In this document: in pieces, positions 3,001-9,000 of the stretch | Position numbering within the stretch: position 1 is the stretch's first letter | Layout: every line of letters begins with the position of its first letter | IMG/VR virus record: IMGVR_UViG_2778261686_000011 | Direction: 5' to 3' (one strand) | Length of the DNA: 18,877 bases | Source of the DNA: a virus | Lineage: Duplodnaviria > Heunggongvirae > Uroviricota > Caudoviricetes | Made by a program: the position numbers

Positions 3001-6000
3001 GATATGAAAGAGACGTGACTGCTGTTGCATGGAAACCACAAACCTTGCTAAGTGCGCTTTTAAACTCTTCAAGGTCGGATTGCGATTTGATTCTGAAAGG
3101 TGACTGCGCAATCCCGGACATGGTAATGCCGCTAACATTGCTCACTGCGTTGTAGTGATATACGTGCCTATTAGCTGATTGAGCCACGCGTTCCTGTTGG
3201 CTGTTTATATTGGCGTCCTGCCCTGTGGTGGTCTTCTCCAACTCTTCGATACGTTCAGCCATCGCAGCACACTCTTCAAAGTTGCTTAATGCCTTTCGCT
3301 CCCATTCGGCGCATTGTTTTCCAAGCTCGGCAATCAGTTTGTCTTTGCCTTCCAGCTCGTCCAGTAGCGCCTGCACTACTTCAGGGTTGAAAGCTGCGAT
3401 ATAACGTGCGTTGTTCTCTGCATTTTTCTGTCCGTCAAAGCCAGGCCATTTGATAACGTCTTCACATCGTTTATCACCAGGTGTATGCACCGCATATGTA
3501 CCAGTACCCGGCGAAATAAATGCGACCCATTCGCTTTGTGTTGCCTGTTTTGCTATCTCACGCAGTGCCTGATAGTCAATCTCGCTCACTGGTTGCCTCC
3601 TTTACGGATCTGCGCTGCGATGCACGAAAAAAAAGACTCTCGCGTATGACTGTTAAGAGCTGGCGCGAACGCCGCGTTAAGAACGGCAGCATCACAGCCG
3701 TCATCGATATAGAGCGCAATTTTTTTCTCCAGGCGTGCTTTGGCTTCCTGCAACTGCATACCCCGGCACGCACGCGGGATATACTCAGCAATTTGAGCGA
3801 TAGATTTTTCGTTCTGTTTAAACATGCTTCACCTCGATAGGCTTGATGGTATCGATCAGCAGTCGGCGGCGAGTATTTTCTGCAAAGTGGCGGCGTCCGT
3901 TTTCTTTGTGGTAAAACTCGTTTTTTCCGACGACCCACATCCGCTTTGTCTGGTGCAGTTTTTTTACCTGCGGACCGTCTCGGGTGATAACAATTCCTGT
4001 ATGAGTTTTTATCACGCTCATTTCTTATTCTCCGGTGCTTTCGGCATTACTGCCCAGTGAGTGATATTGACGTTTTCAAGGTCCCCGACCTGAAATGTCC
4101 ACTGCCATTCTCCGGTTTCTTTTTGTCCCCAGGTGTACCAGAGAGAACGCCAGCCAATTAGCCAGCCTTCTCCGTTAGCATCAAATAACAGAACACTTTC
4201 ATTTGCTGGCGGCAGTTCAGCTGACACTGGTATTATTTTGTTTTCCAGTGCCGCACATTTAGCTTCAAGCGCATCGAATTTACGTACCAGGTACTCAGCA
4301 TTTGTTTCATTCACTTTCAGATCTCGCGGTACACATTTCCCGCGAAGAAACCCTTCCATTTCGAAAACATTCATGCGCATTTGCGTAACTCCGATAACTC
4401 GTTAAAACGTTCCATAAACATCCCGTAGGCATGGCCCGGTGCCAGTGGAATCACGTTGAACATCTCTGTTGCCGGGATGCCTTCCAGTACAGGCCAGAAA
4501 GAGCCATCATCAAGCCCGAGATCGCGGCGTTCGGTTGCCAGCATGATGAGATCGGCATATTTCACAGGCGTGCTCATAACCGGGGGTAACCCGTATTTCT
4601 CACGGATTACGGCATCTATTTTTTCTTCCATCCGTTTATAGTCAGGAAGAAGGCGTTTCAGTGGAGCGGGGATGTCCTGGCAATATGCTTCTGTTGCATC
4701 ATGCATTAACGCTTCAAAAGCAAATTCCTGCGGTACCAGCTGGCTGCAAAGCACCGCATGCTGGGCGACGCTGTAGAAGTGTGAAAGATGTCCTGCAAAG
4801 CGACAGATATTTGAAAGGGAAACTGCGATATCGTTAATCACGATGTCGTCTTTATTTATCTTGTCATAATAAAAATGCTTCCCGGAAAAAGTTTTAATAA
4901 ATGACATTTCGTTCTCCACTTTATATGCGCTGCACCGCGCTGAATTCTGCTAAAAGGAAGCTCTCACCATCCGGTGATTATTGAGTTAATTACGTTTCCA
5001 TAAATGCCCCCGCAGGGGCATTTGCAGTAATGAAATCAGGCGGTGAAAGTACCAATAAAGGTTTCTACTTTGCTGTCTTTGAATTTCTCAACAAGCAGAT
5101 CACGAAATTCGTTAGCCATTTCTTCCTGCATCGCTTCCAGCTGAATAATGCGCAGAACCAGTACAGGACGATCGCCAGTGATAATGCTGAGGCGTAATTT
5201 AAACGGACGTTCTTTCAGACCTTCAAACGGAACGCATTTAAATTCAAATGCCACTGGCATAATGTCTTTGGTCTTCGCTTCGACAGACTCCATCAGGGAG
5301 CGTTTGCCGCTGAAGTCATTATCTTCAAAATCAGCGGTCTGGTTTGCTTCAATCGTGATTTTACGGACTGCCGCAGCCGCTTTTGTTGCCTGAATAGCGT
5401 CACCATTGGCATCAAAGCCCACAAGGTAGTCGGCCCAGTCTTCAATCCATTCTGCCAGTGACTTCTGGGAGTTACGCTCGCCGTTAACAGACAACAGGGC
5501 AGAGAACGGTGCTGTCTTTTTCAGTTTGAGAGTGGCGGTGTTATCTGCGTGACCTGGTTCATCAATAGTACCCAGGTTAAGCACACTGACGGCTCGCATA
5601 TTATCGGCATCGATAAAGCAGCGGGTGCCTTCATCTGCAAGATCTTTAGAATAACGGGTAAAGTCATCGATGCTGGCAGTGGAAAGTGCACCACGGAAAC
5701 GGAAGCGATTTAAATTAAATTTTTCCAGATCATGAATGCGGAAATTCTCAGGCAATGCCACAGCATCGGCACCAATCTTACTGATAATTTCATTAACACC
5801 CTGAGCAGAAATAAGGGCATGGATTTGATTAATTGCGGTTGCGTCTAAGTTCTGAGACATAATAAGTCCTCACTATATAAAGATATTCAGTGATGAGATA
5901 AATAATCAGTTAATTAAGAACGATATTAATGACCTGCTGCGCGGAGTTTTCCGTCAGGTTCACCGGCAAGAGTCAGTAATTGTCCCTGGTCTTCCTGCAG

Positions 6001-9000
6001 AATAGTCAGGCGACCACCGCGATTGACATACATCGGCGTTTCGGTGGTGTCTTCTTCGGAAATTTTCCCGCGGTTAGTCGGGCGAACATATGAGAGTTTG
6101 TGTTTGATTTTCACACGGTTCTCATCAAACGGTTCGATTTCCAGGTTGAGCGAGACCTTACCTTTGGTTTTCGTGTTCATCACACCGGAAGCGACTTCAC
6201 TGAGAACTGCGCCGATTTTGGTTTCAAATACGCCGCCGTCCAGCTCCCCGATAAATGCCTGCACATCAGTACTGCGTTCGCTAGCCATTTTGCTGCTCCT
6301 CATCATATCGACCCTGCAAGGTCGGTTGGTTTCTCCACAAAACAGAGAAGAACACCTGCGGTGGCAGCCGCCCGGGTGGATTGGGTTATGAGCCCGTCGT
6401 CCGGTGATGCTCTTCTCTGTTTTGTAAAAAGAGCGGTACCAGCCGGAAGCAAGTGTACAAACTGGTACCGCCAAAGCAGTGGCTGTTGTGGTGGGGTTGT
6501 CACTTAAGCGTATGGTCAACCTGACAACCCGGTGCCACTAATGGGGTAAGGATAACCCCGCCATACTTACCGCCGCGCCATTTCGCGGATTACCACAACG
6601 CTGAGAGCACTTAGCCAGTTATGGCACCACACTTTGTCGCGGCTCCATAAATGCCCTCATCGTTGCACCCTGGTCTCTTCCCAGGCGTCAAACCGAATCG
6701 CCACGCTGGTTAGGCGTCTTATCAGCATCATCATTGACTTGCACATTCCGGCTACCTGGTTTGTTTGCCCGAGCAAGGAGTGGATTGTCCCCTTTAACGT
6801 CCCCAGACCGCTAACGACGCATGTGCCATACGCCGTGTTACAACCAAATTTTGTTAGTACCTTGTTTGTAGGTCTGGAAAGAAAGATAAAATGAAGTTGC
6901 GCATTATGCAAGTGTTTTTATTGCGAGATATGCAATTTGGTGGGTAATGAAAAGCCACCTTCTGGTGGCTAATTGATGTTGAGGTAGGGGGTTAATTGTG
7001 TCGCTTAAGGGTTTGTGACTGACTGATTAAGACCTTTCCAAAGACCATAAACCGGTGTTCGTTTTCGCTGGTAATTCCCCATTCGCGGTAAATCTGATTA
7101 TCAGAAATTACCAGCAGTTTATCAGGTATCATTTGCAGTCGTTTGACGTAAATTTTATCATCAAAACCAAATACATATATACCATCTCCATCAAACTGAT
7201 TGATACTGATATCAACGAAGATGAGATCTCCTGGCTCAATGGTTGGACACATACTGTCCCCACGAACGTTGATAACTTTAATGTGATTTGCTGGTCGTCC
7301 ACCAAACATCGATACAGCATTATCAGTTCTGTATTCAATGGCATGAATCACATCAATGACATCACCGCCCTGGATAAGGCCATTTCCCGCACTGGCACTG
7401 ACATCCAGCATTTCAATACGGAATACATCCTTCACCTGCGCAACATCCTCACTAATACTGTTTTTACATACAGTATTACTTTTGAGGTCTGAGGTAAAGA
7501 GATCAGCAATATCAACACCTAAGCTCCTGGCAATATTACTCAGGGCTTGTTCAGTGAATTGTTTCTGCTTACCTGTTTCGAGGCGCGAGATATTCGCCGC
7601 ATCCACTCCTATTGCTTCAGCGAGATCGGCGATTTTCATGTTCTTCGCCTGGCGAAGTTGTCTGACTCGATTTCCTATGTTCATGCGTTTATTACATTTC
7701 TTTATTGCGCGTTAAGCAAATCAACTTGCGCAAAATATTTGCGTGAAATAATATGCTCATCACGCAATATGTGGAGGTTATATGCAATCACCATTACGGA
7801 ATGTGCGTAAGGCGCACGGATTTACTTTGCAGCATGTTGCTGCGGGCGTTCAGGTCAATCCAGCGACGCTGAGTCGTATTGAAAGACTGGAACAAATTCC
7901 ATCTATCGATCTTGCAGAACGTCTGGCCAATTTTTTTAAGGGTGAAATCAGCGAAATGCAGATTCTTTATCCGGCACGTTTTCAATCTAGCCAAAACCAG
8001 AATGGGTTTAAACCACAGGAACAGGAGGTAAGCCGTGGGTAAGCATCACTGGAAAGTGGAAAAACAACCTGAGTGGTACGTGAAAGCTGTCAGAAAAACT
8101 ATCGCGGCATTGCCTGGGGGTTACGCTGAAGCTGCTAACTGGCTGGATGTAACAGAGAACGCTTTATTCAACCGCCTTCGTGCAGATGGCGATCAGATTT
8201 TCCCGCTGGGATGGGCAATGGTTTTACAGCGCGCGGCTGGCACTCACTACATTGCGGATGCTGTCGCACAGTCTGCTGGTGGGGTGTTCGTATCGCTTCC
8301 TGAAATTGAGGAAGTAGAGAACGCCGATATAAACCAGCGCCTGCTGGAAGTCATCGAACAGATCGGGAATTACTCAAAGCAGATTCGTTCGGCAATCGAA
8401 GATGGGGTCGTGGAGCCACACGAGCAGACAGCAATTAATGATGAGTTGTATCTGTCAATTTCGAAGCTCCAGGAGCATGCAGCACTGGTCTACAAAATCT
8501 TCTGCGCTCCAGAAAAGAGTGACGCCCGCGAGTGTGCAGCTCCGGGCGTCGTGGCGTTTTGTGTCTGTGGAGAAACTAACGCATGAACAGTTTAACGGCA
8601 AATAACCGTTTGTCGCAACAGCTGGTGGTCAGTGTCGCTGAACACCTGTTGTTACGGCATGAATGCAGATTACCAGATCACCTGGCTGTAAGTAACCACA
8701 GAGAACTTTACCTGACTGTGGGGGGCGAGTTGTGCAGGAACTTAACCGCTGGTTTCGTGACGGAAGAGGGCTTTATGTCCATGTTATTCGTTGGGAGCCA
8801 GAAACACAGCGCGTTATCTATCTTCGCAAAGACTACCCGCATGAGTGCTTTAGTCCTTTGTGGAAATTCAGGCGTGATTTTGTTGAGTGTGAAGGACCAC
8901 CAGCACATTGATTCTGCCATTCCGGGACGTTACACTGTTCAGGCACCTTATAAAACGGGTGCCGGGCGTGGAAACCCGGAATTCACCAAAGCGCACAACC

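Follow-up and report, generated by a model that had tools for sequence, protein, structure and literature searches.

Identification of the yfdP-yfdQ-yfdR-yfdS cluster

We were interested in what the genes at positions 4371-6288 of IMG/VR virus record IMGVR_UViG_2778261686_000011 do for the phage that carries them. The record is a stretch of 18,877 nucleotides (nt) from a member of the Caudoviricetes, which was analysed over its whole length and is called the window below. Three long co-directional open reading frames (ORFs) were found on its minus strand at 4371-4919, 5036-5860 and 5926-6288, and these, together with their family matches, confirmed the three early-left genes marked there by an initial annotation made from the sequence alone. 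Full-length BLASTP comparison with the proteins of the Escherichia coli K-12 element CPS-53 gave identities of 99.2% for YfdP, 98.9% for YfdQ and 99.4% for YfdR, so that the identification with CPS-53 yfdR and yfdQ, which that annotation had made, proved to be correct. The yfdS product of the window matched its K-12 counterpart with 100% identity in 117 of 120 residues, and no YfdT homologue was found in the window in the same comparison. On sequence grounds, yfdP, yfdQ and yfdR are present in the region as intact prophage copies, with yfdS as the next gene:

5926-6288, minus strand: yfdP, 120 amino acids (aa), first gene of the cluster, annotated by PGAP with 363 nt
5036-5860, minus strand: yfdQ, 274 aa, DUF2303 family
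4371-4907, minus strand: yfdR, 178 aa, HD-domain phosphohydrolase annotated as 5'-deoxynucleotidase, 537 nt in PGAP
4018-4380, minus strand: yfdS, DUF551 protein (DUF551 2.7e-4; phrog_583 2e-82)

The four genes have the architecture of an operon, with a single coding strand, Shine-Dalgarno sequences and an overlap of 10 nt between the yfdR stop and yfdS. For yfdR, the start called by the ORF finder (GTG at 4919, 182 aa) was rejected, as this GTG lies inside the Shine-Dalgarno sequence of the ATG at 4907, which has GGAG 7 nt upstream and agrees with the 537-nt form of PGAP. A longer YfdP starting at TTG 6519 (197 aa, the frame being open) was ruled out by the position of the Shine-Dalgarno sequence and by the starts of 23 YfdP homologues (59-91% identity), which without exception correspond to 6288 (MASERS).

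The genes are already known: they have names and annotations, and published work discusses them. A 2.1-kb segment with 95-99% identity was found in 3049 of 5426 complete E. coli genomes, its genes being called yfdP, yfdQ and yfdR by PGAP, and in 52 phage records including mEp460 (99%), cdtI, 2H10, Ayreon and Stx2c phages; the cluster is also present in phage SfV (orf29-31). Being carried by over half of the complete genomes, it is among the commonest prophage gene sets of E. coli, and Zheng, Casjens, Davidson, Amundsen and Smith (Genome Res 2025; PMC12315714) describe it as a common early-left cluster. As it is named, ubiquitous and has a published proposed function, its novelty is low, and the finding is real, not new. 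What the present analysis adds is the obligate pairing of yfdP and yfdQ, the optional place of yfdR, the conservation of the HD residues in YfdR and a solved homologue of YfdQ.

A published link to replication initiation and a proposed takeover of host replication

The phage function of these genes had initially been called unknown, which holds for the growing phage and for the biochemistry of YfdP and YfdQ (PMC12315714), but not for the cluster as a whole, since binding of YfdR to DnaA and inhibition of oriC have been published (PMC4776307). Noguchi and Katayama (Front Microbiol 2016; PMC4776307) isolated yfdQ-yfdR-yfdS-yfdT as genes that, in multicopy, suppress the over-initiation mutant hda-185, with yfdQ and yfdR each required in addition to either yfdS or yfdT, and yfdP dispensable. 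The experimentally defined functional set is this one and not yfdP-yfdQ-yfdR, and its gene content is present in the window, where yfdQ, yfdR and yfdS are intact, contiguous and co-directional from 5860 down to 4018. Extra copies blocked initiation at oriC in wild-type, dnaAcos, seqA, DARS and diaA backgrounds, extracts inhibited oriC replication in vitro, and the binding of YfdR to DnaA was specific and dependent on Phe46 of DnaA domain I, the site used by DiaA and DnaB (PMC4776307). Deletion of yfdQ led to a weak sensitivity to methyl methanesulfonate and H2O2 (PMC4776307), and YfdQ production promotes plaque formation by the resident phage in K-12 (bioRxiv 10.1101/413146).

The best-supported account of the cluster is a module for the takeover of host replication in the lytic phase, which we put forward tentatively as having close to an even chance of being correct. 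Upon induction, transcription would pass the terminator upstream of yfdP and the cluster proteins would be made. YfdR would then dock on DnaA domain I and, together with YfdQ and YfdS, prevent the DnaA-dependent loading of DnaB at oriC, by which new rounds of host chromosome replication would be stopped and DnaB/DnaC and precursors freed for the phage origin, while YfdP and YfdQ would act as a single two-protein unit. In its favour, the published genetics and biochemistry concern K-12 proteins to which those of the window are 99% identical, and the model is attractive for a phage that encodes an initiator and no helicase loader. If true, it would explain how lambdoid phages with an O-like initiator and no helicase loader acquire DnaB, and it would add a second phage route to silencing DnaA beside that of lambda P.

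Several points weigh against this model. The competition of YfdR with DiaA and DnaB was only 'moderately' strong, the phenotype was obtained from multicopy plasmids only, deletion of yfdQRST had no effect, so that the authors concede a possible overexpression artefact, and YfdQ, YfdS and YfdT were not co-purified with YfdR or DnaA (all PMC4776307). The YfdP-YfdQ pair also occurs in lytic Xanthomonas and Vibrio phages that have no adjacent YfdR, indicating a role of its own which the model leaves unexplained. Finally, the conserved HD residues of YfdR and the spread of its family over 333 phage records suggest that the ancestral selected function is catalysis and not the binding of E. coli DnaA.

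Catalytic residues and possible substrates of YfdR

YfdR matched phrog_318, 'deoxyribonucleoside 5' monophosphate phosphatase' (4e-111, 372 bits), and its HD motif is present as H50, H69-D70 and D119, as expected from its initial assignment to the HD-domain enzymes. In 57 homologues (29-99% identity) D70 was invariant and H50, H69 and D119 were each at least 90% conserved; as these residues are kept down to 29% identity, catalysis by YfdR appears to be under selection. The protein fell below both curated cut-offs for YfbR, with 24.2 bits against the Pfam YfbR-like profile PF12917 (gathering score 25.9, aligned residues 45-108 only) and 19.9 bits against NCBIfam NF003009 (YfbR, cut-off 122), and can therefore be regarded as a relative within the HD superfamily and not as a YfbR orthologue. 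Its nearest solved relative is the uncharacterised Atu1052 (PDB 2gz4, 1e-13). As far as the work of Zimmerman (2008) is relayed in PMC4776307, YfdR and YfbR are structural homologues, the nucleotide affinity of YfdR being much lower, and deoxyribonucleoside monophosphates (dNMPs) are its only reported substrates, bound with low affinity; the 5'-dNMP phosphatase activity of the K-12 protein is weak. YfdR-type proteins were detected in 333 phage records compared with 184 for YfdQ, their carriers including Bacillus, Caulobacter, Rhizobium and jumbo phages, and many of the jumbo or Gram-positive ones lack YfdP-YfdQ.

These results bear on the possibility that YfdR is a nucleotide-pool enzyme, which dephosphorylates dNMPs or another phosphorylated nucleotide in lytic growth, with the binding of DnaA being secondary or an artefact; YfdR would then resemble the T5 5'-deoxyribonucleotidase or the host YfbR. 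Such a role would be in line with the four conserved residues, with the PHROG and PGAP names (dNMP phosphatase and 5'-deoxynucleotidase), with the weak match to the YfbR-like HD profile and with the spread of the family into hosts where an interaction with E. coli-type DnaA is unlikely to be conserved. However, the scores lie under the Pfam and NCBIfam YfbR cut-offs, catalysis alone does not account for the requirement for yfdQ and yfdS/T, and the pool-enzyme explanation is compatible with the takeover model rather than exclusive of it. We consider it unlikely, with an appreciable chance nevertheless of being right. Catalysis and DnaA binding are in any case to be considered separately for YfdR.

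A second explanation for the enzyme concerns counter-defence and goes back to the initial annotation, which had related it to the degradation of nucleotide signals in anti-phage immunity. YfdR would destroy CBASS, Pycsar or Thoeris signals or counter defences that deplete deoxyribonucleoside triphosphates, and YfdP and YfdQ would be accessory. The circumstantial points for it are early expression, a variable accessory region of the kind typical of anti-defence genes, and the ability of HD enzymes to hydrolyse many phosphoesters. Nucleotide-degrading anti-defence enzymes are, however, not known to include HD proteins, Acb1 having a 2H fold and Apyc1 a metallo-beta-lactamase fold. YfdR matched HD-family models only and none of the Acb1 or Apyc1 type (no dedicated anti-defence library was searched), and the cluster proteins had no match in PADLOC, a library of defence and not of anti-defence proteins. 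Moreover, an identity of 95-99% over more than 3000 E. coli genomes is unlike the rapid turnover of arms-race genes, and the published phenotypes are replication and DNA-damage tolerance (PMC4776307). With the lack of a PADLOC match, the HD fold class and dNMPs as the only reported substrates, the degradation of immune signals is unsupported, and we regard counter-defence as highly improbable.

YfdP and YfdQ form an obligate pair

The conserved unit differs from the trio that had first been proposed. Because a scan of viral contigs returned only near-identical E. coli loci, neighbourhood statistics were taken from species-representative genomes, with 71 YfdQ loci that were combined with three annotated phages to give a sample of 74. 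A YfdP homologue was found directly upstream of YfdQ and on the same strand in 72 of these 74 loci, the two exceptions being truncated YfdQ matches. YfdR homologues followed YfdQ on the same strand in 59/74 (51 adjacent, eight at a distance of 0.6-1.9 kb) and were absent within 6 kb of YfdQ in the other 15, and YfdS was present in only five. The conserved core is an obligate YfdP-YfdQ pair, with yfdR as a frequent, optional and independently mobile partner. Where YfdR was missing or displaced, the next genes included those for a single-stranded DNA-binding protein (SSB), Rv2179c/DnaQ-like exonucleases, repeat proteins and an integrase, as illustrated by three phages:

Lytic Xanthomonas phage CP2: YfdP homologue (39%, E 8e-18), YfdQ, 511-aa coiled-coil protein, Erf, exonuclease, endonuclease, SSB
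Vibrio phage 24E35.2: DnaQ-like exonuclease, YfdP-like protein, YfdQ, SSB
Pseudomonas phage pAN: PrtN, YfdP-like protein, YfdQ, two ORFs, 3'-5' exonuclease, HD phosphohydrolase

YfdP belongs to phrog_204 (1e-49) and is listed under PF27127 in a precomputed table. Its predicted structure comprises a long helix, a three-stranded meander sheet and a conserved acidic tail (pLDDT 70), and no informative structural neighbour of this prediction was found. YfdQ matched DUF2303 (PF10065) over profile positions 2-269 of 269 (7e-92, 307.9 bits, gathering score 26.6) and phrog_210 (8e-120). A profile search of 1.84 billion representatives led to 1783 clusters (about 1800 at 50% identity); no domain fusions were seen in the top 150 of these 1783, all being single-domain proteins of about 270 aa (265-285 aa), and the family is uniformly acidic with isoelectric points of 4.6-6.6 (median 5.1). 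Invariant residues of YfdQ fall into the stretches R52-G57, P102-N107 and E179-A195.

The structure prediction for YfdQ that the initial annotation had proposed as a check was run and gave a model with no informative fold match; a solved homologue exists, however, as PDB entry 9o7m ('YfdQ Protein', 36 chains), which aligns to residues 16-273 of YfdQ with an E value of 1e-44 and about 38% identity. The 9o7m sequence is that of a CP2-like Xanthomonas phage, with 98.8% identity to MET23-P3, and the corresponding gene of CP2 lies as follows:

3068-3892 in the CP2 locus (L004): ORF37, YfdQ homologue

The presence of 36 YfdQ chains in 9o7m implies a large assembly, and YfdQ probably forms a large oligomer. 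As the example chain of the entry is C, it may hold other molecules too. No match in the PDB was obtained for the CP2 neighbours ORF36 and ORF38. A literature search on the code 9o7m found no publication, and a preprint on the cryo-electron microscopy of PhiXacm4-11 mentions neither 9o7m nor DUF2303. In Burkholderia phage JC1, the DUF2303 protein gp10 was unexpectedly virion-associated, and its gene lies in a replication/repair module (PMC9144972).

Taken together, YfdP and YfdQ might be a self-contained two-protein machine, in which YfdQ is a large homo-oligomer with a novel fold, placed in the replication/recombination blocks of enterobacterial, Xanthomonas, Vibrio, Pseudomonas and Burkholderia phages. 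Its target might be either the phage DNA or the machinery by which the host replicates; it might even be packaged, as in JC1, and would be a new class of takeover or genome-protection system to which YfdR is an add-on. We offer this as a speculation with a modest chance of being true. In any case, the question is narrowed to YfdP-YfdQ as the pair that does not vary, and a solved structure is now available for it.

Prophage context and recombination functions

The early-left position of the cluster, as first annotated, is supported by its synteny with a CI-type and a cro-like gene, as it lies downstream of and co-directional with the former and opposite to the latter. By sequence, the prophage is a lambdoid one of the mEp460/LLS type, and the cluster occupies the promoter-proximal portion of its early-left operon. 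The leftward order is yfdP, yfdQ, yfdR, yfdS, small ORFs, Ea22, DUF551, an Rv2179c-like 3'-5' exonuclease and PrtN, and the rightward genes encode CII-like, Rha/Ash, HTH_36/DnaD_N, PerC, Dam, RusA, KilA-N, DUF968, Q and lysis proteins:

6992-7684, minus strand: CI-type S24 repressor gene
7782-8042, plus strand: cro-like gene
9952-10770, plus strand: HTH_36/DnaD_N initiator-like gene
10767-11261: PerC-family gene, directly after the initiator-like gene
1338-1964, minus strand: Rv2179c-like/DEDDh 3'-5' exonuclease gene (3.4e-74) at the distal end of the early-left operon

The early-left operon encodes no strand-annealing protein, no nuclease of the Exo/RecE type and no Gam, and YfdP, YfdQ and YfdR showed no homology or fold similarity to Red-beta/Erf/RecT/Sak4, Exo/RecE, SSB or Gam/Abc2. 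Chi sites (GCTGGTGG) are in excess, with 15 in the 18.9-kb window compared with 0.64 expected from shuffles, and 11 of them are on the plus strand:

Chi sites: 1350, 8275, 8621, 8897, 10474, 11640, 12536, 13685, 13956, 14085, 16055, 16376, 17136, 17142 and 17481

PMC12315714 defines an 'LLS functional type' by the lack of a Rec module, richness in Chi, an O-only replication module and the lack of N, and names the present cluster in this connection. Both the lack of Rec genes in the early-left operon and the Chi excess were found in the window, and no helicase or helicase loader lies beside the initiator-like gene, an arrangement as in LLS (PMC12315714).

YfdP-YfdQ might be read as a DNA-transaction module that replaces Rec functionally, be it by protecting ends or intermediates, by recombination-dependent replication or as a protein associated with packaged DNA. 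The pair occupies the usual site of the Rec module in a prophage that has no Rec and 15 Chi sites, its neighbours are Erf, exonuclease, endonuclease and SSB in CP2, DnaQ-like exonuclease and SSB in 24E35.2 and an Rv2179c-like exonuclease in pAN, and both the virion-associated gp10 of JC1 (PMC9144972) and the 36 chains of 9o7m would fit such a role. On the other hand, ArgO145 has the cluster together with a complete Rec module and some Rec-less phages have no cluster (PMC12315714), the YfdQ family is uniformly acidic, and no structural similarity to the Rad52, RecA, Gp2.5, Ku or Gam folds was found. A functional replacement of Rec is rather improbable. The narrower idea of a hidden recombinase was rejected, and the authors of PMC12315714, too, judge hidden recombination proteins to be unlikely on the basis of ArgO145 with its cluster and full Rec module.

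Some further observations were made on the surrounding genes. Exonucleases similar to the Rv2179c-like protein (also at 7212-7898 in locus L085 and 3980-4537 in locus L086) are found repeatedly in the neighbourhood of YfdP-YfdQ, both in phages of Pseudomonas and Vibrio and in a number of enterobacterial prophages. The early-left operon of the window encodes two DUF551 proteins, YfdS (4018-4380, minus strand) and another of 226 aa that has DUF551 at its C-terminus (1910-2590, minus strand), and Ea22 (2978-3589) lies between their genes. On the plus strand, two Rfam families scored above their gathering scores, isrK with 67.9 bits (8943-9019) and C4 antisense RNA with 83.6 bits (9044-9131), both inside the ORF 8583-9734, in the 5' part of this Ash/Rha-domain gene; these matches suggest a c4-like antisense immunity element of the P1/P7 type in a lambdoid prophage. 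At the prophage end, a Panacea (SocA-like antitoxin) protein is encoded at 1-528 (plus strand, 3.9e-20) and overlaps a 156-aa ORF at 525-995 (plus strand) that had no family match, and positions 1-995 may represent a PanA-type toxin-antitoxin pair.

A putative terminated leader upstream of yfdP

About 700 bp (6289-6991) separate the CI gene from yfdP. This stretch has no annotated genes and contains a homologue of sRNA-17, which was placed in the window by means of the primers that PMC7719688 gives for this RNA of E. coli K1 RS218:

6427-6620, minus strand: leader / small RNA region, sRNA-17 homologue (primer mapping)
6426-6472, minus strand: intrinsic terminator with an 11-bp stem (6472-6433) followed by UCUUUUU, about 140 nt upstream of yfdP
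5002-5023, minus strand: 9-bp GC-rich hairpin AAATGCCCC-TGCG-GGGGCATTT, just after the yfdQ stop

The primers map to 6427-6476 and 6600-6849, the 'full length' forward primer being exactly 6427-6458, and this puts the 193-nt sRNA-17 on the minus strand, in the direction of yfdP and with the terminator as its 3' end. Primers for the 5' part of sRNA-17 had no match in the window within 4 mismatches, indicating that the window copy differs there from RS218. The minus-strand fold of 6420-6625 has an energy of -77.2 kcal/mol (z -2.5). In the RS218 wild-type lysogen, yfdP had 0.5 reads and yfdR 0, and upon replacement of sRNA-17 by a cassette the yfdP reads rose about 95-fold and those of yfdR from 0 to 8 (PMC7719688). 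The sRNA-17 region of the window resembles a leader of the early-left transcript that is cut short by the terminator more than it does a regulator in its own right, and the cluster would be silent in the lysogen and would need read-through or antitermination after induction. Silence in the lysogen and a strong upstream terminator fit the expression of yfdP-yfdQ-yfdR in the lytic phase. Further downstream, the hairpin at 5002-5023 lies within the 128-nt gap between yfdQ and yfdR and is not followed by a clean U-run; the record of phage Ayreon carries a 'terminator' feature under the matching segment. This hairpin may serve as an attenuator or RNA stabiliser that gives yfdP-yfdQ and yfdR-yfdS different levels.

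The expression data also bear on a benefit to the lysogen, for which the cluster would be kept because it confers tolerance of oxidative, acid or hydroxyurea stress on the host, as proposed for CPS-53. In favour, deletion of CPS-53, yfdQ or yfdS raised the sensitivity to H2O2 (Wang, 2010, as far as cited in PMC4776307), multicopy yfdQRST raised the resistance to hydroxyurea (PMC4776307), and the decayed CPS-53 still retains the cluster. Yet the genes are nearly silent in the lysogen of an intact prophage, with 0-0.5 reads (PMC7719688), they stand behind a repressor-controlled early-left region and a strong terminator, and they are also found in strictly lytic phages, all of which makes a lysogen benefit quite improbable.

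Comparison with known systems

The closest known relative of the cluster is yfdP-yfdQ-yfdR-yfdS of CPS-53 (KpLE1; b2359-b2362), whose genes are ordered and spaced alike. CPS-53 has decayed to a remnant, whereas the lambdoid prophage around the cluster of the window appears to be intact, having genes for repressor, cro, Q and lysis, and the window also differs in having the upstream leader and terminator region and in lacking yfdT after yfdS. The Rec-less lambdoid phages LLS (gp39-gp37), ST64B (gp37-gp35), mEp460 and SfV (orf29-31) also carry these three genes, placed identically with respect to the immunity region. The LLS and ST64B proteins are about 57-90% identical to those of the window, while the DNA of the window is 99% identical to mEp460, and its copy is the E. 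coli mEp460/CPS-53 allele. With LLS-type phages the window has in common the absence of a Rec module, the 15 Chi sites, the O-only replication module and the lack of an annotated N homologue.

The CP2-like phage from which 9o7m derives resembles the window in that a YfdP homologue (39% identity) stands directly upstream of YfdQ. It differs in being lytic and in having no YfdR in the locus, the next genes encoding the 511-aa coiled-coil protein, Erf, an exonuclease and SSB. For YfdR itself, the housekeeping 5'-deoxynucleotidase YfbR of E. coli shares the HD fold, the H...HD...D motif and the 5'-deoxynucleotidase annotation. The K-12 YfdR protein binds DnaA according to the literature, whereas no such activity is described for YfbR. 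Finally, lambda P is similar to YfdR in outline, as both are early phage proteins that bind DnaA and inhibit initiation at oriC, a comparison drawn in PMC4776307. The two proteins are nevertheless unrelated, since lambda P has its binding site on domain III of DnaA and doubles as the helicase loader, whereas YfdR is a domain I binder and an HD hydrolase, and the prophage in the window encodes no lambda P analogue.

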